From: Spizellomyces punctatus DAOM BR117
Taxonomy: Eukaryota
Direction: 5' to 3' (one strand)
Length of the DNA: 64,000 bases
Assembly (NCBI GenBank): GCA_000182565.2
Contig: KQ257452.1
Shown here piece after piece: positions 9,313 through 29,951 of this stretch (positions are counted from its first letter, which is position 1; every line of letters starts with the position of its first letter). The translations under genes were made by a program, and so were the position numbers. A model generated the notes under the pieces. The model had not been told where the DNA came from. It made no database searches and worked only from the letters and a program-made list of their open reading frames with translations.

Positions 9313-11253
9313 ATGTCCGCTCCTCGTCGAAAACTACCTCCACCGCCAGTCGGTCTGACGAGGCGACAAACACATCATAATGTCTCTATCCCATTAAATG
9401 GAACTATGATTCAGTATTTCGAGTAAGTTATGTAAAGGGACCTTATCATATCATCTTGCGCTAACAGAGATGGGAATTCAAAGATGGCATGTCCCCGCAG
9501 ATCATAAACATTGGACGCGTCTTAGAGACGATGCTCAAAACTTGAAAGATTTGGGAATAACAGCGATATGGATCCCTCCACCAACGAAAGGGTTAGCGTG
9601 GCTCTGATATATAGGAAGAATGGAAAACGATATTCTAATCCTGCTTACACAGATCGAGTCCCGCCTGTGTTGGGTACGCCACATGTATGTTCACTTGTTT
9701 TATATCAATATCTGGTTTGGGACAGAAACTCACCCTACACTCATCCAAAGACGATCTGTGGGATCTTGGTGAATTTGACCAGAAGGGCTCGGTGCCAACA
9801 AAATATGGAACCAAAGCAGAGCTCGTGGATGCCATAAAGGCGTGCAGACAACGGGGAATAAACGTCTACGCAGACGCTGTCCTAAATCACAAACTGGGTG
9901 CCGATCAAACGGAAACTTTCAAAGCCGTCGAGGTATCGCCGCATAATACTGAGCAAGAAGTATCGGGAGAGCTGGAAGTGAAAGGCTGGACAAAGTTTGA
10001 CTTCCCTGGAAGGGCAAACAAATATTCGGATTTTAAATGGCGTCACTATCACTTTACTGGCATTGATTACAATGCAGCAAATAAGCGTCAAGCTATATAC
10101 CGAATACTAGGAGAAGGAAAGTACTGGGTAAGTGACGGCCCGTCTGCTGTCAGTTCCTTTTATCCACGTGATCTGACCTTCGATGGTAGTCTGATAATGT
10201 CGATGGCGAGAGAGGCAATTATGACTACTTGATGGGGGCGGACATTGATACAAGTCATCCAGAGGTGGTCGAAGAACTCAAAAAGTGGGCATTGTGGATC
10301 ATAAAAGAACTGGACCTTTCTGGATTCAGATTGGACGCCGTCAAACACATCGATGCAAAGTTCATGCATGACTTGCTGGAACATGTTCGAAAGAATTCAA
10401 GTGTAGGAGAAAACTTTTTTTCAGTCGGGGAGTACTGGAAGAACTCTATGAAAGACCTCGAAGACTATCTTGACATCCACGAGTGGAAACTGTCCTTGTT
10501 TGATGTACCGCTTCACTTTAATTTTGCGGATGCTAGTAAATTGGGCAAATCTTATGATATGAGAAAGATCTTTGATGGTACATTGGTGCAATCTCATCCA
10601 ATGCATGCGGTTACATTTGTGGTGGGTAGTGGAGGCGTTCAATATGCATGTCAGACCATTTGCTGATATCTTTTTCCACTTACCAGAACAACCACGACAC
10701 ACAGCCGGGTGAATCACTAGACTCGTGGGTCGCTCATTGGTTCCAGCCGCTAGCCTACGCCCTGATATTACTTCGACGAGATGGGTATCCATGCATCTTT
10801 TACGGCGATTTTTACGGTATTGACGGCGAACATCCCGTTCCCGCACACGCTGCGCCAGCCATACGTAACCTGCTAATTTTGCGATCCCAATTTGCGTTTG
10901 GGGATCAGGATGATTACTTTGACCATCCGAGTACTATAGGATGGGTCCGGCGTGGTTGTGAGCAGCGTCCTGCCGGATTGGCAGTTGTGATGTGTGCTGG
11001 GGATGCGGGGTTCAAGCGGATGTTTGTTGGTAGCGAGAGGAATGGAGAAGAATGGGTTGACGTAGCCGGGGGCCGTAAGGAAGTATTGACCATTGGCCAA
11101 GATGGATTTGCGGATTTCCAATGCAATGGGGGTAGCGTAAGTGCCTGGATTCCAAGAAAGGAAGCAGAGAAAACATTCAAGTGGAAGCGGGAAGAGCTCG
11201 CGGCCCTATCGGAAGCCAGTGAAACTGAAGGCGAGGACACTGTAGAACGGTAA
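9313..11253 (+). CDS. Alpha-amylase, GH13 subfamily 5 (Bacillus liquefying type), no signal peptide
   Basis: GTMIQYFEW, GITAIWIPPPTKG, YDLWDLGEFDQKG..PTKYGT, DAVLNHK, GFRLDAVKH, GEYW, NHDTQPG. Confidence 0.92.
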
Positions 11254-11448
11254 GATAAAATGGAAATAGTAGACAAATGTACCATAATGATGAACAAACG
11301 ATATCTGGTCGATCTTCTTGTCCCATTGAAAGTAATAACCTGCTGTCTCTGCTGTCACGCTTTACCAATTTAAAGTGAGGTCCCCATAATCTCGATTATT
11401 TGCATCGCAAAAGAACATCCTTCTGGCGCGTTTCCCCATCCCCAGATC

Positions 11449-12087
11449 ATGACCACGGCACCCGACATTCACAGCCTAATCACATCCCACACCGCTCTCC
11501 CGACGCCCCTCCCCCCTCTCACCCTCGACGCTGACGAACGCACTCCGCTCCACACCGCCGCTACCTCCAAAAATCTCGCTGCCATCACCCTCCTCTCTCC
11601 CCTCACCAGCACATTAGCTGACCCACAAGATTGGACTCCCATACACATTTGTGCGTCGAATGGGTTTATTGAGGGGTTGGCTGTCCTACTACGTGATCAT
11701 CCCACACATGTGAACGATCAGACGGAAAGTGGACAATCTGCGCTCCATTTTGCGGTATCTAAAGGGTGGAACGAGATTGTGGTTGCGTTGTTGGATGCTG
11801 GCGCGGACCCCAATCTTCCAGACAACTATGGTATGACGTCCCTTCACCGGGCTGTGCATCGTAGTAGGTACGATATTCTGAATATCTTGGTGGCCCGTGG
11901 TGGGAATATCAACGCTGCAGATAAAGAGGGCGTGACGCCGCTCATGGGGGCCGCGGAGGACGGTGATGAGCAAATGGTAAGGGCGCTGCTGGAGAAGGGG
12001 GCGGACGTGGGCAGGGTGGATAAGAGCGGACGAAGAGCAGTGGATGTTGCGGCTGCAAGTGTCAAGAGGTTGGTGTCGGTTGAATGA
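11449..12087 (+). CDS. NAS6: Ankyrin-repeat protein, gankyrin/Nas6 (PSMD10)-like; intronless
   Basis: DERTPLH, DWTPIHICASNG, GQSALHFAVSKG, YGMTSLHRA and DKEGVTPL repeats; 212 aa. Confidence 0.75.
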   Translation: MTTAPDIHSLITSHTALPTPLPPLTLDADERTPLHTAATSKNLAAITLLSPLTSTLADPQDWTPIHICASNGFIEGLAVLLRDHPTHVNDQTESGQSALHFAVSKGWNEIVVALLDAGADPNLPDNYGMTSLHRAVHRSRYDILNILVARGGNINAADKEGVTPLMGAAEDGDEQMVRALLEKGADVGRVDKSGRRAVDVAAASVKRLVSVE

Positions 12088-12297
12088 TAGTAGGAGGTAT
12101 TATCCATAGGAATGGTGGGCCCGGGTAGCATCTTGTGCATATAATGCAATAAGACGAGTCAGTGTGGGCAAGTGTACTTTTAGGAGGCATCATGTTGGTA
12201 TGTTGATAATGAAATATATATTGGATAAGAAAGAAAAACAGGCAGAAATATAGAAAAGAACCGCTATAAAAAAAAACATGGATGTCCTAGTCCTACA

Positions 12298-14766
12298 TCA
12301 TTCGACACCGTCCACAAGAGGAAGCCTCTTTCGCAATTTACCGTTTATTTCCGTAGGCGTCAAAGACTCCTCATCATCGTCATCATCGTGCTCATCATTC
12401 CTATCATACTCGTCTTGGTCCTCTCTCTCTTCCTCCTCATCACTCATAATAGGGGAAGCATCGGACCATGGAGAGGCAAGATGTGCCTCATGCGTCGCTT
12501 CCGGTTGAGGTTGAACAGAATTTTTGCGGCCAACCGGTCGGACTCTGGTTCCTGAAAGAGGATACCGTCCCCCACCTTTACCACTCTCGGTGACAAGTGG
12601 TTCCAAATTCGTATGAGATTTCTCCTTCTCGAGAGCACGAAGAACGGCTTGGTGGATTTCTTGTTCGGCGGGTTGGTCAACCGGTTGCAGCAGGGCCTCG
12701 GTCAAGGTTGCGGCGCGAGTAAGGGGCCGTGACGAAGCCATGAGAACTCTCTCAGCGCTCACGCGCCCATCCAGAACGATTTTCGAGCCAGTTTCATCGG
12801 GGCGACCTTGTCCCATTTCGAGAAGAGTCGATATTTGGGTCTCTGAGATCCAAGGTACCGTGCGGATAGGTGTAGAGTCGGCTTGGACGGTCGCAGACGT
12901 GTCCGACCATGTTTCGGCGTATTCGTGAAGGAGGCCGAGAATGGCAGGGTATACTGTCTTTTCGAGGCCTCGCGCCCACAGAAAGCATATGTGCTGGTGT
13001 ACGTGCGCACGGCTGGCGTGAGACAGCTTTCCAGGCGGACAGCAAACGGAAGATAAACCTTACCTCATACTCATCCACCTTCATACAATAGATGGGTGTC
13101 GCGGTCTCTTCCAATAACCAGTTCATATCCGCCAACGTATCCTTCCCTCCGTAAAACAATGCAATCGGCGTCTGAATATGCTCCGTCGGAAACTTTGGCA
13201 CAACATGGCCCGATGAAGAGTTGGGGAGTACAGTCGGACTTTCGTCGTACATTTGGAACCGTCCGTTCCGGATAATTTGGAACCAATGGACCTAGTATAC
13301 AAACATTAGCTCAACGCTTTATAGCATGTTGAAGAAATACCCAGAATAAATCTTACCACACACTTGACGGATGTGTAGGAGTACAAATGCTGATAACAAA
13401 CATTCTTATGATCAATCATTTCTGCATTCCACTTGAACAGAAACCGCACAGCGACATCAATCAACCACGCAAAACTGAGTGGTGTCAGAATGCTCTGCCA
13501 AAAGAGGGTAATAGACAACAGAGATTTACGACCAAAGAGAAGGAAAACAATTTCCGGGGAGATATTGAGCATAGTTCCTAGGACTTTGTTTTCGAGGCCC
13601 ATCGGCTTCGCGGCGGGTGCGAGAGCCACAAAGAGGTTGATACGTTTGTTCAGCTTGGAGTTGATGGAGAGGGATGAGAATCCCTGTGCTGTGCCTGTGA
13701 CCCAAATTGTGAGATCACACATGGCCCTTACATCTGAATCAAAGAGTCCTCGTCCTTACCTTGCGAAAAACCAATGTACGTGAGCGACGGGACACCCGTC
13801 ACTTTGAGAATATACTATAAGATCGCAAGCGTGTGAGACAAGCGATCAACCTGTTACCATCATGCGCCGGACTCACATCAACTGCATCCGGTAAATCATA
13901 TAAAGCCAAGTGATCCATCGAAAAGTCCCAAAATGCTTCTTCCGTGGGTTTCAAACTCCGATGTTTACAGCTATACTTGTTCCCTCGTGTATTCCCCAAC
14001 CATACATCATACCCCGCATCAGCCAAGGTAAAGGCAAGGGACAGCTTTGGATCAGGAGTGCACACCCAGACTTCAGAGCACATGAGAAACCCATGCCAGA
14101 GGAGGACGACAGGGCGGTTGTTGGTTGACTGTCGTGTTGGACGGGTGCCGGACCGACGGGCGAGGGCCTTTTCCCGCTTTCTGGATTCATGTTCGGCGCG
14201 AGAGGTGGGTATACGATGGAGGGCGAGGATATAGCCATCTTTGCTTGTCACATAGTGGTGTTGGAAAGGAAAGCCCCTGATGATGGAGAGAGTTAGTGAC
14301 CAGGTTTTGCGTCATCTGAATGCCCTGCGGTGGGCACCGCATGGCGACATGGCACGGGGTACATGCCAGGCCAGCCATACAGCACAGGTTAATCAACACA
14401 AAGCGCCAATCACTTTTGCAAAATATCTGCCTCTTCAAAAGTTCCTCACCAGCACTGCACCACCACGACCAGCTTCCCACACTCGTTCCATTCAGCCCAA
14501 ACTCACCAAAATCGTGCAAACTCTTCCGTCGAGTTCAAGGTCTCAAACACCTTTTCCGCCTTTTCATCCCCATTCTTCTGATCCTCTGACGCATCCTTGT
14601 CTTGTTTAAACATTTTCCTAATCCAGTCTACAATGTATCTCAACGGCCAAAAGACCGCGAATACAAATCTCAAAATCGGTTCGGTAATAAGAATGGTGAC
14701 TGCCAGAAAGAGCCGAAGGTAGTCTTGGATTCGCAGCCGTCCGAGGACGGGGATGTAGGAGAGCAT
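12298..14766 (-). CDS. AB-hydrolase acid lipase/steryl ester hydrolase (Tgl1/Yeh family) with N-terminal membrane anchor
   Basis: TSKDGYILALHRIP, VLLWHGFL, DVWLGNTRGNKYS, FWDFSMD, GFSQG nucleophile (spliced), ALAPA; acidic low-complexity tail. Confidence 0.88.
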
Positions 14767-15322: not shown

Positions 15323-17218
15323 ATGGACATGGAAACAGAATATACCATCATCGAACCTTCGGATGAGACCGAGGTCGTTCTTGGCAGGACTGCTGAAGGA
15401 ACAGACATTTCAGTACAAGGAGATCCGTCGGTGTCACGTACGCCAAGAGAGAAAATGACCAATGTCTTTACGGGTTTGGTACGTTTCCTAGTGTTGCTTG
15501 TTTTCATGTAAACAGGCTCGCCTTACTTGTTGTGTGTCCAGCGTTTTCTGGTAGGCGTCGCATCAGCAGCGAGCGAAGTGGGCTTTGCAGCCGCCAAGCT
15601 CGGTACCAAATTCGGGATCGGTATCGCCCGCGGGATCGTCGACGGTGTCGGTGAAGCAACCGGTCTCGACGCTACAGGTGTCACACCCCTCGTCTCCAAT
15701 ACACTAGCCTTTGCAGAGTTTTGCGCCATAGCTGGCATAGAGACGGGTCGCTTCTGGACAAAATTTGGCATCTCCACTGCTGACAATAGCGTCAAGGCGC
15801 TCAACCATGTATTTGGATCCAGCGAAGTGGCAACAGCAATCCGACAATTTGCTGCATTGGTCAGAAGAGAAATGTCGGAAGGGGAGAATGGTTTGAGTTT
15901 GGCGGATATTGGTACCGTGGACACTGTGCGAGCTTTGATGGCGTGGGTATCTCTGCAATCCACCACTTCTCTCCTATGGGATTACGACGCAGTCAATTCA
16001 GGAAAGACCTTGGTGCTTGAGCAAGGTGGTCCCATAATAGAAGAACCTGATGAGCCGGTAGAATGGACTCATGTGGAGGGCGCCGCCGCGGTCGAGGGAA
16101 GTATTGGAACGCCTTCTGCGGACACATCCGAACCCAACCCAGCAGATACCGATACCACCCAAGAACTTGTTGCCGATCTTCGTCGCTACATAAAGTTTGC
16201 AACAGGAAGCTACGGGCGCAACTACATTGGCGCCCTCAATGGCCAAATACCCACATTTGGCTTTGCAGCCGATCCAGACCCCCGTCACGTTCCCGCATCT
16301 GCTGAACACCAGTTTTTCGCCTCACACACCGATACACCCCTCGAAGGAATATTTCATTCCACCCATGACACGGACGGCTTTGATGACATTTTCGCCAACC
16401 ACCAGACCTACAAACCCACTTTATACGTCATTGCTGACCACGCCGCGCACCAAATCATTGTCTCCATCCGCGGCACTCAATCCTTTCACGATGTCCTGGT
16501 GGATCTTACTTGCGAATACGACTTTTTTGACGACGAACAGGTGCATTCTGGCATGATGCGCGCCGCTCAAGCTTTGGCGGGGGTCAACCACGTTGCACGC
16601 GTCCGTGAATCCGTCCAGAGCCTCTTGGAACAACACCCGTCCTATTCCCTCCTTCTCACAGGTCACTCCCTGGGCGCCGGTCTGGCGACTTGCCTCGCAC
16701 TCGTGTGGACGGATCGCTCGACAGGTACAATCCCCTCTGAAAGCGGTCTCCCAGCCGGGCGCAATGTCCGTTGTTACGCCTTTGCGCCACCTTGCGTTGT
16801 GACACCCGCACTATCAGCTTCGTGCACGTCCTTTATTACGTCTTTTGTTTTTGGCACGGATTTAGTCTGTCGTCTCTCCCTCGGCTCTGTACGCGATCTT
16901 ACTCGCGTGGTAGCCTGGCTTCATACTCACCCATCCGAGCGGGACGATCTTCTCCAGCGCGTGGCATTTGCCCAGGGATCTGATAGTTTTGACAACGGAG
17001 GGGATATTGACCTCCGTCGCCGAATCGAACGGGAATGCATGGTGAATGATAAGTTGTACCCTGCTGGACGTATCGTATGGGTGCAGGAAACGGATGGCGT
17101 GCTAAAAGTCATTCAAGTGGAGAGACCGTCCAAGGCTTTAGGACAGATTCTGTTTACCAGAACGATGGCGAGAGATCATTTACCTAACGTCTATTCGAAT
17201 GTGGTTCAGAGATTGTAG
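15323..17218 (+). CDS. Class 3 lipase (diacylglycerol-lipase-like)
   Basis: VSIRGTQSFHDVLVDL, VHSGM, TGHSLGAG, YAFAPP, DLVCRLS, DHLP; one short intron near 15479-15535. Confidence 0.85.
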
Positions 17219-17534: not shown

Positions 17535-19991
17535 TCACTTTCTTCCGGTATCACTCCTCCAAATCCTTTTCCACACCCACGGCATAACCAAGAATCCCAC
17601 CCCACTCCCAAACACCAACACAAATGTCACAAATCCCCTAGCAAATCCCCGTAAGGCTTTCATGGCGTCCTCCATCTCATCTGATAGGCCACGGACATTC
17701 CATCGAAGGTTGGATACATCTCGACCCAGGATGGTCACCTGGCTCCCAATCCAGAGGAGATAGATGATGCCAAGGAGGGGAACTGAGATTTTAAGGACTT
17801 CCTTGCCAAGTGTGATAAGATGTCTGTAGGCGTGGGTGAGGAGTGTCCCTGTTAGATGGGTAAGGCGCACACCCATCGTCCACAAGGTGTGCCGCCACTG
17901 AATCGCAACACCAAGACTTAAAAGTCCTCCTCCGGCAAGGAATGCAGTTTTGTACGCATTCCACAAGGGTTGGATGACCTCCAGTGCAATTTGGAACGGG
18001 TTGGGACAAGTCGCGTGGGTGAGAAGGATCTGGTGTACAGCGGTATCAATCTCCATATTTCGTTCGTGGGCAGATCCGGAGCCGGCTCCAACGATATGGT
18101 GCATAATATCGTGGTCGTAAGAAGATGGAAAGTGTTTAATCATGGGTTTAATGATTTTGTCGCGCTCCATCTTGATGCGCTTGTGAAGTGCTTCTTTCAG
18201 AGACGTTGTGAACCACCATTTACATATACGGTCCGGGGTATCCCGCAAGCCTAGAAGCCAGTCCATGACTTCATCGTGAGCTGCGTCCCCCTTGGCTTTG
18301 ATTTCAGTCTCGGCCCAAGTGATGTAAACATTTTCCCACTGCTCCACGCGATTGGCGAGTTCTTTTTCTAGAAAGGCAATCACCATGACTCCCCGAGGAT
18401 CTTCCCCCAGGTTTTTGACGCTTGCTTTCATTTTAGCCATTTCAACGTCGGCAAGGGCCTGAAGTTTTTTTGTGAATGTGGCAAAGTCTCCTTGCATAGT
18501 GATGGGAAGTTTGGCAGCGGCAGCATCGAAAGCACGTAGGAGGCGCTTGGCTTCGTGCTCCAGTTTAAGTTGAACGGCCCGGGCCCAGTTTGTGTGTTCA
18601 GGGATTTGTATGGGAGCTTCCTTATCCCAGAGGGTGATGAGCTTGACGAGCTCGGCTCCACTCAGATTCCGACCGTTGAGTCGTTTGGGCGCAATATGGG
18701 TGCTGACGGAATGATGCAGTGATGTGACATCCTTTCGATATTCCTATTCGGCGCAATGCCTTGTCAGAACAGGAGGAGGTTAACGTGCTGACATGCGGAC
18801 TACCTACCTCTTTAAAGTCCGCCCACCCAATCTCATCACCATCACCAGCCATCTTGGCGTCATCATCGCTGGGTCTCACGATCGGAACGAGTTCAATAGT
18901 GCCAAACTATGTAACAGGTCAATACCACCGGCCACCGTATACAGATTCAAAACATATTCACAAGTCCTACCTGTTGCTGCAAGAACCTGACATCCACATT
19001 AGCATCCTCCAAAAAGGTATCCTTTGTAATCAACTGATCCAGAAACTCTTTCGCAGTCCATCCTGCCTTACGTAGCGCATATTTGTTAAAATTCTGGACG
19101 GCCCAGTGGAGGTTGGGTGGATCCAGGTGCTCTGGGATGGCAATAAGGTCATGCTCCTCGCCAGGAACCGTAAGCGGTAGCGTGTTGTTTGAATCCACGG
19201 TAGCGGCAGCAACGTCCATCATGAACAGGCGAGAGAACGCTATATTTGGCACAGTAGAGTGAGACCCTGTCGGAAGTTTAGCTTCTGATTTGATTGACTC
19301 ACCCACAAGTGCCTTCAAGTTTCGTACATCAGCGGCATCCACCGGTGCCCACGTATTATATAGCACCGCGCTGGCAAGCATGGAGGCATGTACAAACAAT
19401 TCGACCTCGTACGCAATAGTTTGAACGGACTCTACTCCGTGCAACCCCTCACTATCAATCAAATACGTTGGAACCCCACCCATAGTGATAGGTTTTGGCC
19501 AGATCCATAAACCTGTCGGTCGGATGGTGTGTTGGAATATGTTGATAGATGGACGAATTGTTTTTTTTAGGACCTACCGTGCGTTTTGGATGCGACGCCG
19601 CCTCCAACCGGGAATGGGATTGCGGACTTTGTCACCCGCGTTGAAGCGTCGCTACCATTTTCAATGCGTACTATTTGGTTTAGCAACTACAAATAGACTA
19701 TGAGTTTGAACGAACACGCTGGAATGCAAATCCCTCTTGACCTACAAAAGACTTTCCCGTCCGCGTCGGTCCAACCGCGGAAACAATGGCAAAAGGCGCG
19801 TAGAGTGAACCCAAGAACGCCGATCCCTCTGGTGTGAGACGAAGTCGGGTGCCTGCTACCGTATCGCTATCGTCCTTTGTCCGGCTGAACAGGAGGATGG
19901 GTGTGTTTTCAACTGGCAAGTGCGGGGATTGGGCGCTAACGGCGAACGCGACGTAGAGGAGAAAGAGAAGGCGACAGTATGGGGATCGCAT
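17535..19991 (-). CDS. Guanylate-binding-protein/atlastin-class large GTPase with signal peptide and C-terminal hydrophobic helices
   Basis: Spliced: G1 VGPTRTGKSF/LLNQI, G2 FPVGGGVASKTHG/LWIW, G3 LIDSEG, G4 region LHWAVQNF, PKRLNGRNLSGAELV; joins in frame to ORF 17535-18497. Confidence 0.85.
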
Positions 19992-20294
19992 TGGCGAGGG
20001 CTTTCGTTTGCGTTGTGCGTGTGTGTAAGATGGTTTCCTTGATGGATGCCTTGCAGATGGCCTTTTTGACAGTCGAAGAGCGCGGAAAGCCCATTCGATA
20101 AGCCAATAATTAATTTCGCTTAGTCTTGCGTTTTGTCACCTTCTTTCCTCCTTCCTGCTTCAGTTGCCTTTTGTTTTTGTTTTTTTGTTGGCATTGGCAT
20201 CAAGATCTTTGAAAGAATACACAGCAAAAGCGATACAAGGTTCGCCAGATTGCTGTTCGAAAAAAGCCCGTAGCGACCCAGCGATACAGTTTCA

Positions 20295-21959
20295 ATGAAC
20301 CGACGCTCCTTTCAGGTAACACATCCCCCATCCCATTTCTTTTTTGACAACAGAAGGGAACATGCCCCCACAGTTATCCATACCCCCACTTTGACTCTTC
20401 CATGACAAACCTACCAAGTACGCTCGACCGCCACCGCACTTTGCACCACCCCCACGATCAACATCGTCTTCTTGGAATGGATACCGGAGAGGTTACGAAT
20501 ATGAGCCATTTCACGCCGACCGCAGTGAGGACTGGAGATCTGGTGAATATCATGATGGTGGTATAGGTCTGCAGGATAGAAGCAATGGGCCTTGGGACTT
20601 GCGCTCAAGGTAAGGAAAAGCAGTTTCTGGTTGATTGCACAGTGCACAGGCTTTACACGATGGTACAAGCAGTCACACGGAGCAACGATACGATCTTTAT
20701 CCTCGACGAGATCCCCAACCACCACCACCGCCAACACCGCCACCTCCAACACACGATGCAAGCCTTGAACCCATCATCGAGTCCTTTGTCACCCGTCCCC
20801 CCATTTCAAAAGCCGTTCAGTTCCTACAGGACGGGCTCCTCCCTGACGTCCCAGGAAACTACACCCTCCCCACCAACCTGGACCCACACAATCCATATAC
20901 GTATGAGCAGTTTTTAGATGGGTTGTCCGTGCTTGGGAACTATAGCTTTTTGGTGGATAAGTGCTCGTATGGCAAGAAGGAACGGGCGGGCCGCTTTGCG
21001 CGAAATGTCGAGGAAGAACCCGAAGAGGACTACTTTTCTTTGAGGTCTAGACAAAATGCTGATTATGCTCTTCGCTGGTATGTACTATTCTAGAAGCAGA
21101 ATCATGGGTGACCATGATACATTATTTAATAATCCATGTAGCGTCAAGGAAGGGATTGAAGCCTTCCAAGAAGGTGATTTCGAGCGAGCCCTGAAAAAAT
21201 ACCGACATGCTTTAGAGCAAGATGCGCGATGTGCAGAAGCATACGTTGCGCGTGGTGCCGTGTAAGTCTGACTCTTTGTGCGCATTCAAGCGCAGGCGTT
21301 TTATTGATTAGATATCCAGCCACGTAAAGCAAGAAAAATACACAAAAGCCATCGCCGACTTTGAACACGCCCTCAAGGTGGACCCACGACATGCAAACGC
21401 TGCCATCTATCTCGCAAAGACACGCAAGCGAGTCGCAGAGCTAGAACAAGAAAAACAAAGTGCCGCGAGGGGAGAGTTTCTAATGGTACGGTTCACGTTT
21501 CATTGCCGCCAATACTCTAATGGACTGGTCAGTTGAACAGCTGTTTTGAAAACATAGCCAGTAGATTACGATCCCAGACATCCAACGCATCCAGCAGCAC
21601 TCTCCAACAAACTCGCGCACGTTCGTTTCCGTTCCGCTGAGAGCTCAACAACGGAACTCATGACAGATCCAGATCCACCAGCTCCCGAACCCATCCATGA
21701 CCTGACAAAACGCCGTCTCGTCTCCCCACCACCCACCAAACGCGAAAAACGCTCCCCGCACAAAAAAGACAAGAAGAGAAAGAAAAAGAAACGGCGACGA
21801 CAGAGTGTGGAGAGTTTGAGTAGTAGTGCATCTGAGAGACATGGTCGTGATTATCGTGAAGCGAGTTTGGACAAGAGGGACAAGAGGCGAGCAAGTTATA
21901 CTTTTAGATCCCCGTCTCGTGACAAGAGTCGACGGTCAGGGTCACACCAACGACGATAA
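20295..21959 (+). CDS. TPR protein, TTC14-like, with basic/RS-rich tail
   Basis: LRSRQNADYALR.VKEGIEAFQEG...YRHALEQD..CAEAYVARGA...KAIADFEHALKVDPRHANAAIYL matches the TTC14 TPR block; KKDKKRKKKKRRR NLS-like run. Confidence 0.7.
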
Positions 21960-26519: not shown

Positions 26520-29500
26520 CTACTTTTTGAAAATCCCAAACCCAACGACTCCTTCCAAAACCCCTTCGAACCCTCTCGCCATTTTCTCCAAAGGCCCTTC
26601 AACATTATCCACTTCAACAGCCGAATCCGGGTGTCCGCCCCGGTACCCAGAAACGTCCACACGTAAATCTTCGTCAAAACGGTATACATCCCGACTACGG
26701 ACGCGGACAACGGGGCGGTCTTCGACAATGTCGTTTAGGTGTTCCACCCAGGTTTGGATGGGGCGGAACCAGCTGTTTGTGCGTTTTCGGGGAGTGTCAA
26801 GGGGGGGAGAGGGGGAGTCCGTGATCATGACCGCTCCGTCCGATAACTTGCGATGGGCCTTGACCACGACCGAATGAGCCACAACATCGGATGGTATTCC
26901 CGACTCGTTCGAGGACACGGAAGCCGATTCAACCTCTTCTGACTCGTCAGGGTGGTCCGCATCGGGTCGCCACCACTGCAGTTTGGCGGGATCCCGTTTC
27001 ACGCCTTCGACAGGTGCATCCCGTCTCCACCACGCTAGGCTTTCATCTACCTCGACATCGGAATCAAATTCAGAATCCGTGTCCCAACACCGTGGGACTT
27101 GTCGCGGCGGCATAAATCCCTCCAAATCATCCTTGACAAAAAGGGGTGTGAAAGGGTTTTGAAGCATGGCATAAAGGCCAGAGATTTCCTTTTCGATTTC
27201 AATCCAGTTTCGGTCCGCCGAGCGCTTGAGGTACTCGAAAGCAGCTTCGTGGGCTTCCTGCGTGACATTGAGTTCCGTTTTGTAGGTGACCAAGAGTTCT
27301 TTGGCTGCTGCGAGTTCTTCTTCGGCTTCTGCCGCACGGGCCACGCTTTCCTGAGCCATGGACATGTCGGCTTTGATGTGAGCAAGTTCGGTCCGCGCCG
27401 CAACGAGCTCGCTTTTGAGACGAAGTTTTTGGCGGTTTTGTTTTGCCACCAGTTCTTGAGCTTGGGCGAGTTGGAGTTTTAGGACACGAATGTCGTCTGA
27501 CGCAGCCGTGGGGTGTGCTTCGCTTTCGTGGCTAGTGAGGATGCTCTCTGTGCCGTTGGGTGCGTTGCTGGCGCTGTCGGTCGGGTGAATATCGGGGGTG
27601 TCGGGTTCGTCGGCGGGTGTTGGGGATTGAGGGGGAGAGGGCGGGGCACTGCCAGTCGGACTGGATGTTCCTGATCCTACGAGGGAAAAGATTTTGTCAA
27701 TTTTCGTATGCGCTTCTGATGACAATATCATGACCATGTTCAGGCCCATAGCTCAGGAAAAGACATGGAATGGCGAAAGCCGAGCCCTCACTGTTATCCA
27801 CATGTGCCCCACTGAATACGCTCTCAAAACGCTAATTCAGGGACGAGACGGAATGACGAAAGCTATATCTCACCGTCATCCAGCAAAAGTGTCCAGTGAA
27901 GACGCGCCCGACCGTGTCCAAACACACTAGCTCAGAAAGAGACGGCATGGCAAAACGCCAACTCCTTGCCGTCATCCACTAAAATACCGCTTTCCATCAC
28001 TTGAACATTCCCACCATTTCTCAACCCCCACGTCCATGTTCACTTGTATTCAATCTAACCCGGTCGGTACTCACCCAAATCATCCACATCCCAAACCTTA
28101 ACCTCCCCATCGACACAAGCCGTCACCAATCTCCCCCGCCCAGCCACAAGCGCCACGACTTTTTGCTCAACCTCAAAAGCCCTCGTCACACGCCCTGCTT
28201 TGACATCCCACTCCAACACACTTGCATCTCCCGCGCTGTACAATTTGCCCTTTGATAAGACGAGAGAGTGGACGGGCGAGGTGTGGCCCTTGAGGGTGCG
28301 GAGGGTTTGGCCGGTGCCAATGTCGAGGACGTGGATGGTGCCGTCGTAGGCGGCGCTGTAGAGGAGGTCGCGGCCGAGACAGAGCGTGAGGACTTGGGAC
28401 TGATGCTCTTGGTACGCGACAATGCAGCGGCCTGTATTTAAAAGAGGAGATGTTAGCCATGTGTATTGAAAGCGAGCGGTAGCTCTCGCTCCTCCCAGTC
28501 GCTACACTGCAACGCGGAAGAGTGATAGGTGCACCTAGCCCATCATGTCGCCCAGCGAGTTGTGGAAGCAACCAGCGCTCGCCTCCCAGTCGCTAGCCTG
28601 CAACGCGGAAGATTGATAGGTGCACATAGCCCATCATGTCGCCCAGCGAGTTGTGGAAGCAACCAGCGCTCGCCTCCCAGCCGCTAGCCTGCAACGCAAA
28701 GGTGGGGCAGGTGCACCTAGCGAATATACCGCCCGAACCTGAACCCAGACCCTAACCACTAGCCCAACAATTACCCAACAAAGCTCGAACCTTAGACCCG
28801 AACTCTAGCCCATCCCTAACCCAAAACCGAACTCTAACCGAACCTGAAGCCCGCAACCCAACCATTAACGACTAACCCGAACCTTAATCCCCTAACCCAA
28901 CTCTAACCCGAACGCTAACCATCACTCAACTCCCCTTACCTAAATCCCAACCTCCCCCTAATCCCTGATCCCTAATCCCCAACTCCAACACTCACCAGTA
29001 GACATGTCCCATACTCGAACCGTTCGATCTGCACCGCTTGAATACAATCTCTTTCCGTCAGCACACAATGCCGTCACACTCCCCGAGTGCCCTCTGAGCA
29101 TCCATCTCCTCCGACAACTTCTGGCATCCCACTCACTGACACCACCATCTTGACCTCCAGAGTACAATTTCCCTTCAGGCGTAAAGCACAATGCCAAGAC
29201 AGGCCCTTTGTGACCAATGACACTCCTTGCACAAGCACCCGAGGACAAGGACCAAACACGGATAGAGCCGTCCTCGTAGCCTGAAAATAGCCTGCGAGCA
29301 CTGGAAGCCAGACTAGAGACATTTGCACCGGTTGTCACAAAGGAGCGCAGCGTCGAGTGTGAGAGGGTATTGTATTCCAGGACAGAAGCGTGCGTGCCTA
29401 CGTAGAGCGTGTCACTGTTGGTGGCGAGACAAGAGACATGATTGTTTGTGTCGAGCGGCAGCCTCGAGTCCGTGCTTGTTGGGTGATAAAGAGGAGGAGG

Positions 29501-29710
29501 AGAAAGAGAAGAAGAAGAAGGAAGAGGTGGGGATTTAAAGAGAGACCAGAGACTGTCCATGACCGTCCCAATCCCCTTGTCGTGAGCGGTGGTGGCGGAA
29601 GGAACAAGCGTCGAGCGATGAGTGTCCTTGTTATTATGAATAGCAAGACTACTTGTGTTAGTAGTAGTAGTAATAAGAGAAGAAGAAGACAAGGAAGGCA
29701 ATAAACGCAT
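26520..29710 (-). CDS. WD40-repeat protein fused to a coiled-coil/acidic C-terminal region (3 exons; introns 28432-28995 and 27716-28074)
   Basis: GH...WD repeats (LFSGYEDGSIRVW, LYSGGQDGGVSEWD, LYSSGADRTVRVWD, LYSAAYDGTIHV). The phase-1 donor TTGG|gtgagt matches acceptor catcag|AAGCG, joining ORF 26520-27749. Confidence 0.75.
27740..27980 (-). repeat. Three diverged tandem units (spacings 96 and 82 bp), intronic
   Basis: Sense-strand units tggatgacgg...tt(t/c)g(c/t)cat(g/t)cc(g/a)t.tc...ctga(g/a)(c/t)ta near 27979, 27883 and 27800. Confidence 0.7.
28487..28721. repeat. 91-bp tandem repeat, ~2.6 copies, intronic
   Basis: Unit cgctcgcctcccagtcgctagcctgcaacgcggaag...gtgcac.tagcccatcatgtcgcccagcgagttgtggaagcaaccag at 28487, 28576 and 28667. 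Confidence 0.95.
28730..28990 (-). repeat. Degenerate telomere-like (TTAGGG-related) hexamer array, intronic
   Basis: On the + strand: ccctaacc, cccgaacc, ctctaacc and ccctaatcc variants over ~260 bp. Confidence 0.75.
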
Positions 29711-29951
29711 TGTCTATACAAATCTATGCAATCCAATGCAAAAAACCAACCCAACAAAGGAGGGGACGAAAGCGGTCCAATGAGTCATTCAATGGTGAAG
29801 CGGAGTAAAAAAAATAAAATTATGTGGGGAGCGAGGATTGAACCCTTCAAATGTCATGTGATTGGGGGGGGAGAGAGAGGGGGAAACACATACGGGGGAG
29901 TGTGAATAAGCAAATGAGCGAGATTGTGTTTTTGATTAGAGTTTGGAATAA

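Follow-up and report, generated by a model that had tools for sequence, protein, structure and literature searches.

Membrane-anchored relatives of the guanylate-binding proteins (GBPs) that combine a predicted signal sequence with a C-terminal transmembrane (TM) segment are already known in amoebae and plants, and the architecture is not new. DdGBP of Dictyostelium discoideum (Gnbp, DDB_G0281639) is described as having a predicted signal peptide, a GBP G domain, and a C-terminal TM segment, as residing in the endoplasmic reticulum (ER), and as restricting Legionella growth (PMC12040241, PMC8565484). The plant AtGBPL2 clade (AtGBPL2 and SlGBP3/4) is drawn with a signal peptide as well as three TM helices (PMC12489281), and GBPL2 has been termed a counterpart of atlastin-1 (PMC12034427). 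Vertebrate GBPs are cytosolic and have neither a signal sequence nor a TM segment. Some carry a CaaX lipid anchor, as stated in one of these reports (PMC12040241). Here we describe a GBP-like gene of the chytrid Spizellomyces punctatus DAOM BR117, located at 17535..19991 on the minus strand of a 64,000-nucleotide stretch of contig KQ257452.1 (assembly GCA_000182565.2), the whole of which we call the window. We put at about even the chances that its product is a highly divergent, chytrid-specific GTPase of the membrane-anchored, signal-plus-TM GBP-like kind, with its G domain on the lumenal or exoplasmic side.

Compared by published description rather than by alignment, DdGBP, whose predicted signal peptide has a signal-like counterpart in the chytrid protein, also resembles that protein in its GBP-type G domain, its long helical region, a TM segment at the C terminus, and the absence of a CaaX box. 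It differs in having a single predicted TM segment and a length of 796 amino acids. The AtGBPL2 clade, likened by published description alone, matches the chytrid protein in predicted layout but is about 600 amino acids long and is drawn with a GBP-C helical domain and nuclear export and nuclear localization (NES/NLS) motifs, whereas the chytrid stalk gives no match to the GBP_C family PF02841 at E up to 1 in the three members scanned. A language-model search of the chytrid C-terminal half returned a streptophyte GBP_C cluster as a look-alike (score 0.91, 162 shared features), which we treat as a lead only. Vertebrate GBP1, GBP2, and GBP5 give the best G-domain sequence and fold matches and have in common with the chytrid protein the P-loop Arg, the switch I S-x-T, and the D-x-E-G motif, but they have R-D at the G4 position and a GBP_C helical domain. 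Canonical GBPs are soluble, whereas all nine chytrid proteins considered here carry an N-terminal hydrophobic segment and at least two hydrophobic helices.

Atlastins and Sey1/RHD3 are membrane-anchored GTPases that fuse ER membranes; atlastins lack a signal sequence, keep the G domain in the cytosol, and are anchored by two neighboring TM helices. The chytrid protein is like the atlastins in its membrane anchor and GTPase class, and atlastin-1 and -3 are found by profile and fold searches, with weaker scores than the GBPs. The atlastin pattern of a close TM pair, an amphipathic tail, and no signal is not seen in the chytrid family, in which the strong helices lie 22 to 30 residues apart, the N terminus is signal-like, and the tail has 1 to 22 residues. 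What is new in the chytrid clade, as read from its sequences, is an unusual G4 motif, two to three anchors, a stalk with no detectable outside relatives, and a retained arginine finger.

A six-exon gene with homologues in chytrids

The coding region comprises 713 codons and a TGA stop (17537-17535) in six exons, as established from the splice model, identity to the homologue P0004 of Spizellomyces sp. 'palustris', and tblastn pieces. Exon 1 (19746..19991, residues 1 to 82) carries the signal-like segment together with the first beta strand of the G domain, PILLF, and the P-loop. It is followed by intron 1 (19687..19745, 59 nucleotides [nt]), exon 2 (19578..19686, from the splice model and tblastn), and intron 2 (19513..19577, 65 nt), which interrupts the switch I motif S-K-T-H-G. 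Exon 3 (19303..19512) encodes the end of switch I and the G3 motif DSEG (19445-19456), and exon 4 (18971..19239) contains the G4-equivalent A-V-Q-N (19091-19102), where HMMER and MAFFT alignments place T-L-R-D of the GBPs. Beyond intron 4 (18907..18970, 64 nt), exon 5 (18808..18906, again from the splice model and tblastn), and intron 5 (18744..18807, 64 nt), exon 6 (17535..18743) encodes the helical stalk, two invariant cysteines, the hydrophobic segments, and the basic tail, and it includes the stop. Introns 1, 2, 4, and 5 have the form GTAGG...AG, and once they are removed, a single frame stays open all the way from the start codon at 19991 to the TGA stop.

Intron 3 (19240..19302, 63 nt, GTGAGT...ATATAG) was recognized by comparison with homologues. 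Because it keeps the frame and contains no stop, the raw frame reads through it silently. The 21 residues that it encodes are absent from all eight homologues, and an initial 734-residue splice model that retained it was dropped in favor of the corrected 713-residue protein. Every peptide quoted in a preliminary description of this locus is found in minus-strand frames: MRSPYCRLLFLLYVAFAVSAQSP and GPTRTGKSF in the open reading frame at 19698-20135, LWIW...DSEG in that at 18947-19573, and the three hydrophobic segments and basic tail in that at 17535-18743. What was observed there is confirmed, with the difference that this additional 63-nt intron has to be removed.

Retention of the 63-nt intron would add 21 residues within the G domain. 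At the exact site of intron 3, the Rhizophlyctis gene model (P0008) has an unrelated 22-residue insertion that is probably an intron retained in the annotation. Single-species insertions elsewhere in the G domain, of 25 residues in P0003 and 20 in P0008, likewise look like unspliced introns in public models.

The gene is real, because exon 6 alone matches three proteins (E 1.8e-78 to 3.4e-28). A tblastn search of the window with P0004 finds the GBP-like gene as the sole matching locus, with pieces that coincide with the exons. Run exhaustively with HMMER against 1.84 billion representative proteins, the exon 6 query (402 amino acids, stalk plus hydrophobic helices) matched only these three proteins, all of 705 to 720 amino acids, at E ≤0.001, and detected no relatives of the stalk outside the family. 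A word-indexed search with one of the three matches returned eight proteins, every one from a chytrid: Gaertneriomyces, Spizellomyces sp. 'palustris', Phlyctochytrium arcticum, Geranomyces, Powellomyces, Fimicolochytrium, Borealophlyctis, and Rhizophlyctis. By NCBI taxonomy, five of these species belong to the Spizellomycetales and two to the Rhizophlyctidales, and Phlyctochytrium arcticum is placed in the Chytridiales.

The window protein and these eight homologues form the nine-member family to which the counts below refer. The window protein is 96.3% identical to P0004 over 710 aligned residues and 35 to 50% identical to the remaining homologues, and two of the eight are annotated at source as 'guanylate-binding protein'. 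A literature search for chytrid or fungal GBPs with a signal sequence found no paper relevant by title or abstract; the one match on chytrids and guanylate-binding proteins only lists a Blastocladiella expressed sequence tag.

A GBP-type G domain with an altered base-reading motif

Pfam GBP (PF02263) is matched by all three full-length homologues scanned (E 2.2e-18, 6.9e-18, and 1.8e-16; 60.6 to 66.8 bits against a cut-off of 21.1). Exon 3 of the window alone scores 18.3 bits for PF02263, below the cut-off, and E 0.045 against the PDB with phmmer; single-exon scores are low because the G domain is split across four exons. No match to RHD3 (PF05879) or PF20428 was obtained at E up to 1 in the three homologues and the window exons, and none to GBP_C (PF02841) in the three homologues or window exon 6.

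A profile of the eight homologues retrieved 27 distinct PDB sequences at E ≤0.01. GBP5 leads (E 3.4e-18), followed by GBP1 (2.8e-14 to 2.2e-13), GBP2 (1.3e-12 to 2.8e-10), an RNF112-type protein (3.2e-12), atlastin-1 and -3 (6.3e-8 to 2.9e-6), and a further atlastin chain (3x1d, 2.2e-5). No Sey1 chain appears at E up to 0.01 in this search, and the family, lacking PF05879 and PF20428 as well, does not show the Sey1/RHD3 pattern. Assignment to the GBP/atlastin class, proposed in the preliminary description together with a comparison of PF02263 against PF05879, is thus borne out, with the profile favoring GBP5, GBP1, and GBP2 over atlastins.

A fold search points the same way. Its query was an AlphaFold2 model of the Spizellomyces homologue with a mean predicted local distance difference test score (pLDDT) of 65.9 and a predicted template modeling score (pTM) of 0.47, in which stalk residues 310 to 550 are mostly above 80. 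Of its 74 hits at E ≤0.001, those to GBP1, RNF112, and atlastin-1 come first (E 3.9e-11 to 6.2e-10). Language-model look-alikes stay within the GBP/atlastin/Sey1 superfamily, and only there do Sey1 clusters appear. The profiles and the structure model together assign the protein to the GBP type and not to that of the atlastins or Sey1.

The P-loop GPTRTGKS (residues 74 to 81; 19749..19772, minus strand) has Arg at the position of the GBP/atlastin arginine finger. Invariant across the family are the P-loop GPTR(T/S)GKS, the switch I S-x-T, and the G3 D-(S/V)-E-G; we take the roles of the P-loop Arg, the switch I Ser/Thr, and DxEG to be those known from the hGBP1 and atlastin literature. The predicted phosphate-binding and catalytic residues are retained. 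At G4, all nine members read (T/A/V)-(V/I)-Q-N, whereas all 15 canonical relatives have R-D. HMMER sets GBP5 'VWTLRDF' opposite the family's 'HWTVQNF', and two MAFFT alignments concur. In GBPs the G4 Asp reads the guanine base, and Ras-type and EF-Tu GTPases in which the corresponding Asp is changed to Asn come to prefer xanthine nucleotides. By analogy, base preference may be altered in the chytrid family: Q-N stands in the base-reading position in place of R-D, so the nucleotide of choice need not be GTP.

A signal-like N terminus and C-terminal anchors

The N terminus of the window protein, MRSPYCRLLFLLYVAFAVSA (residues 1 to 20; 19932..19991, minus strand), is signal-peptide-like, with two Arg, a hydrophobic core of 11 to 13 residues, and V-S-A at its end. 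An equivalent hydrophobic segment, conserved in form and not in sequence, occurs in all nine members and ends 2 to 10 residues ahead of the invariant first strand PILLF; all eight homologues thus keep the feature that the preliminary description had proposed for the window protein. In eight of the nine, one to five Lys or Arg precede the core, and small residues follow it (V-S-A, A-L-A, C-Q-A, C-L-A, and similar). A crude threshold, requiring a Met start and a Kyte-Doolittle 10-residue window of at least 2.0 within the first 40 residues, is passed by seven members; the other two score 1.90 and 1.65. The segment resembles a secretory signal and may be cleaved. Mitochondrial targeting was rejected, the N terminus being a hydrophobic core and not an amphipathic basic helix.

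At the other end of the protein, the weak hydrophobic segment AFLAGGGLLSLGVAI (residues 578 to 592; 17901..17945), the strong TM segments ISVPLLGIIYLLWIGSQVTIL (residues 630 to 650; 17727..17789) and GFVTFVLVFGSGVGFLVMPWVW (residues 681 to 702; 17571..17636), and the basic tail KRIWRSDTGRK (residues 703 to 713; 17538..17570) follow one another on the minus strand. The last two hydrophobic helices are strong in all nine members. The first has a 15-residue core and reaches a Kyte-Doolittle 19-residue mean of 1.5 in four of the nine, the window protein not among them. Of the three C-terminal hydrophobic helices originally proposed, two therefore stand firmly and the first is weak.

Exactly two cysteine columns are invariant in the family, corresponding to C485 (within 18213-18230) and C557 (within 17997-18011). 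They are the sole cysteines of the mature window protein and lie at stalk helix ends in the AlphaFold2 model, an arrangement that would suit a disulfide.

Charges were summed over the nine proteins, two of which are near-copies. The 15 residues before helix 1 hold 12 Lys+Arg and 9 Asp+Glu (net +3), the loop between the first and second TM segments 40 and 11 (net +29), the loop between the second and third 41 and 44 (net -3), and the tail 27 and 7 (net +20). These net charges fit a predicted arrangement with the N terminus outside, three spans, and the C terminus inside, in agreement with the signal sequence.

A signal-plus-TM class of GBP-like proteins across eukaryotes

One distant profile match of the chytrid family, P0010 (777 amino acids), has the same signal and TM layout. 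Used as a query, it retrieved 121 proteins at E ≤1e-5; the 120 listed are mostly 780 to 870 amino acids long. Named sources among the matches listed include Balamuthia, Mayorella, Pelomyxa, Physarum, Entamoeba, Creolimax, Lithocolla, Nematostella, Symbiodinium, Perkinsus, Amoebophrya, and Selaginella. Two proteins without a recognizable P-loop were removed, and 15 canonical proteins (nine from this search and six from earlier profile matches) were sorted out by eye on the basis of an R-D motif, mostly a GBP_C domain, and the absence of hydrophobic ends. The 109 proteins kept as a class (P0010 and P0016-P0124) span Amoebozoa, including amoebozoans other than Dictyostelium, Holozoa, a nucleariid-type amoeba, alveolates, and streptophytes; 95 of them begin with Met. 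A literature search found no paper treating these proteins as a class, only those on DdGBP and plant GBPL2.

By the threshold given above, a signal-like N terminus is present in 74 of the 109 class proteins, none of the 15 canonical proteins, and seven of the nine chytrid proteins. One or more hydrophobic helices follow the G domain in 90 (exactly one in 89), none, and all nine, respectively, and both features occur together in 58, none, and seven. The arginine-finger position is His in 108 of the class but Arg in every canonical and chytrid protein, and the G4 pair is E-D in 89 of the class, R-D in all canonical proteins, and Q-N throughout the chytrid family. The class thus typically has a single TM segment near the C terminus, a His finger, and E-D, whereas the chytrid clade has two to three hydrophobic segments, Arg, and Q-N. 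A Gly-Pro opening of the P-loop, found in 100 of the 109, is common to the chytrid family as well.

P0010 itself is encoded on a 4.6-kb contig; its N terminus ends in V-V-G-C, which is also lipoprotein-box-like. A prokaryotic origin, suggested by the 'archaeon' label of its bin, was rejected on the grounds that its 120 listed relatives carry only eukaryotic names, and it is probably eukaryotic and misbinned. Four cysteine columns just ahead of the C-terminal TM segment are occupied in 77 to 85 of the 109 class rows and could be disulfides or a metal site. They were discarded as a class-wide mark: among 12 C termini inspected, they occur in perkinsid and similar unnamed rows (such as P0031, P0033, and P0069) and not in amoebozoan ones. 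Two Symbiodinium entries (P0049 and P0070) combine GBP with an HSP70 domain (PF00012) and may be fused neighboring gene models.

The chytrid family hidden Markov model finds its best outside matches in this class (Balamuthia, 119.5 bits), the best canonical GBP-like protein scoring 93 bits. The stalk gives a profile-profile match to the class at 84% probability (E 7e-6, 190 columns), against 8.7% for canonical helical domains, with the caveat that spurious matches are possible in helical regions. A G-domain tree was built by a quick method from 54 of 135 proteins (nine chytrid, 32 class, and 13 canonical; 337 columns, LG+G4). Each of the three groups falls on one side of a branch, with support of 100, 95, and 99 in the Shimodaira-Hasegawa-like approximate likelihood ratio test (SH-aLRT). 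Because these three clades have no further outgroup, the choice of root determines which two are sisters, and the tree is silent on whether the signal-plus-TM class or the canonical GBPs are the closer relatives of the chytrid clade. Constraining the chytrid clade with the Lithocolla protein, a grouping chosen after seeing the tree, was not rejected (log likelihood difference +3.54, approximately unbiased test p-AU 0.585).

On the match of the stalk profiles, together with the Gly-Pro P-loop start and the architecture common to both, we file the chytrid family as a putative fast-evolving, very divergent branch of the signal-plus-TM GBP-like kind. The preliminary description had allowed for the protein grouping with an already described family. 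This is partly so, by its layout, which is in print and recurs in the class of 109, while the chytrid clade remains a very divergent branch. The proposal of an uncharacterized system special to early-diverging fungi is correspondingly weakened by the printed layouts of DdGBP and AtGBPL2 and by the presence of 109 such proteins across eukaryotes.

Orientation of the G domain and alternative explanations

The signal sequence, the loop charges, and the two invariant cysteines lean toward a lumenal G domain without proving it, and we give this model about half of our confidence. The N-terminal signal would direct the nascent chain to the ER, and both the nucleoside triphosphatase (NTPase) domain and the stalk would come to face the lumen or the exoplasmic space. 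The three helices would serve as the anchor, with the basic tail remaining cytosolic, and nucleotide-driven pairing of G domains, as in GBPs and atlastins, could then tether or reshape the membrane from its lumenal face. Several observations weigh against this model as a whole. N-glycosylation sequons are not conserved, numbering 0 to 7 per protein with no column common to more than three of the nine, and so carry little information. Lys and Arg alone give a weak bias (67 inside versus 53 outside), net charge alone separating the loops, and the first segment is weak; a two-span arrangement would put the tail on the same side as the G domain. The structure model is of moderate quality (mean pLDDT 65.9, pTM 0.47). 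As to kinship, the chytrid clade stands apart in the tree, on a long branch of its own (stem of 1.87 changes per column), instead of nesting in the signal-plus-TM class, and forcing it together with four opisthokont members lowers the log likelihood by 56.8 (p-AU 0.013). To our knowledge, every characterized dynamin-superfamily G domain faces a nucleotide-rich compartment, and we know of no established supply of GTP to the ER lumen, while the strict conservation of the predicted phosphate-binding motifs argues for a bound nucleotide. The Q-N change could reconcile a lumenal site with conserved catalytic motifs if another nucleotide were used, and ATP is known to be imported into the ER. In a fuller version, which is quite possible although short of probable, the NTPase domain would be lumenal or at the cell surface, C485 and C557 would form a disulfide, and the invariant Asn in place of Asp would accommodate a nucleotide other than GTP, such as ATP.

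The published accounts of similarly built proteins favor the opposite orientation. The G domain and its stalk would then lie in the cytosol, the N-terminal segment would be an uncleaved anchor with its N terminus outside or a hairpin, and the protein, fixed to the membrane at both ends, would act from the cytosolic face as a GTP-driven ER tether, fusogen, or defense scaffold like atlastin, Sey1, or DdGBP as its authors see it. We regard this as quite possible, although short of probable. The authors of the DdGBP studies place the G domain of this ER-localized protein in the cytosol, since GFP-DdGBP and DdGBP-GFP, tagged with green fluorescent protein (GFP), both lost the GFP signal under proteinase K (PMC12040241, PMC8565484). 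As described, AtGBPL2 is treated as an atlastin-like, active cytosolic/ER GTPase with NES/NLS motifs. In the DdGBP assay as published, the blot sees GFP only, the N-terminal fusion 'appeared to produce unspecific aggregates', and a C-terminally tagged calnexin control showed the same protease behavior as C-terminally tagged DdGBP. The body of calnexin is lumenal. GFP fused to the C terminus, behind a TM segment, would be cytosolic in either topology and an N-terminal fusion would mask the signal, so the assay probably does not discriminate between the two. A cytosolic G domain would also account for the invariant catalytic motifs, including the arginine finger, which are expected where GTP is plentiful. 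The uncharged N-terminal runs of 17 to 25 residues could in principle cross a membrane, and in some members an Arg comes directly after the core (A-R-R-D in P0005 and A-E-R in P0006). However, the strongly hydrophobic cores are short (about 11 to 13 residues in the window protein and Rhizophlyctis), the positive charge that precedes the core in eight of nine members favors insertion with the N terminus inside and translocation of the G domain, and the first G-domain strand begins just 2 to 10 residues after the segment. With the G domain in the cytosol, moreover, the net-positive first loop (+29) and tail (+20) would be lumenal, contrary to the charge rule.

The altered G4 motif also admits a secretory-pathway protein without GTPase function, namely one that acts independently of nucleotide in a structural or receptor-like role at the cell surface or in the vacuole. 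The invariance of Q-N against R-D in the canonical relatives, the length of the stem branch (1.87 changes per column), and the absence of detectable stalk relatives beyond the family among 1.84 billion representatives would all suit such a protein. We nevertheless find it improbable: the change is confined to the base-reading residue pair, and a P-loop with Arg, a switch I Ser/Thr, and D-x-E-G that stay invariant at 35 to 50% overall identity are hard to explain without nucleotide binding and hydrolysis. It is very unlikely that the signal-like N terminus is an artefact of the gene model, with the true transcript or start elsewhere. The same kind of start is present in all eight independently annotated homologues, and the hydrophobic segment, first strand, and P-loop lie within one exon. 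The ATG at 19991 is the only in-frame ATG from the upstream stop (20138-20136) to residue 129, and the next Met, at that residue, is past the P-loop, so a downstream start is incompatible with an intact G domain.

Genomic neighborhood

The convergent neighbor (15512-17218, plus strand) encodes a class-3 lipase (PF01764, E 1.8e-21), and the stops of the two genes lie about 320 bases apart. Beyond it are alpha-amylase fragments (9639-11253, plus strand), an ankyrin-repeat protein (11374-12087, plus strand), and an alpha/beta-hydrolase lipase (about 12298-14311, minus strand); these neighbors at 9639-14311 are functionally unlinked to the GTPase. A WD40-repeat gene (PF00400, E 4e-20) lies at 28055-29713 on the minus strand. 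About 300 bases upstream of the GBP-like start, 20295-20320 on the plus strand may be the short first exon of a divergent gene (ATG at 20295, then GTAAC), which would leave scant space for an additional upstream exon of the GBP-like gene.

Implications for GBP-like GTPases

The class that combines a secretory signal with C-terminal anchors runs from amoebae to plants, and its orientation has been probed with terminal GFP tags only. The chytrid branch offers a clean test case, with its signal-type N terminus, two invariant cysteines, intact catalytic core, and altered base-reading motif, and Spizellomyces can be transformed. A cytosolic G domain would make the protein a fungal counterpart of the ER-anchored GBPs in a lineage thought to be Sey1-dependent. 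A lumenal one would give GBP-like mechanoenzymes a new cell-biological setting. Should the lumenal protein also use a nucleotide other than GTP, it would be the first dynamin-superfamily mechanoenzyme acting from the exoplasmic face of a membrane, and the topology of the whole signal-plus-TM class, DdGBP and perhaps plant GBPL2 included, would have been misread.

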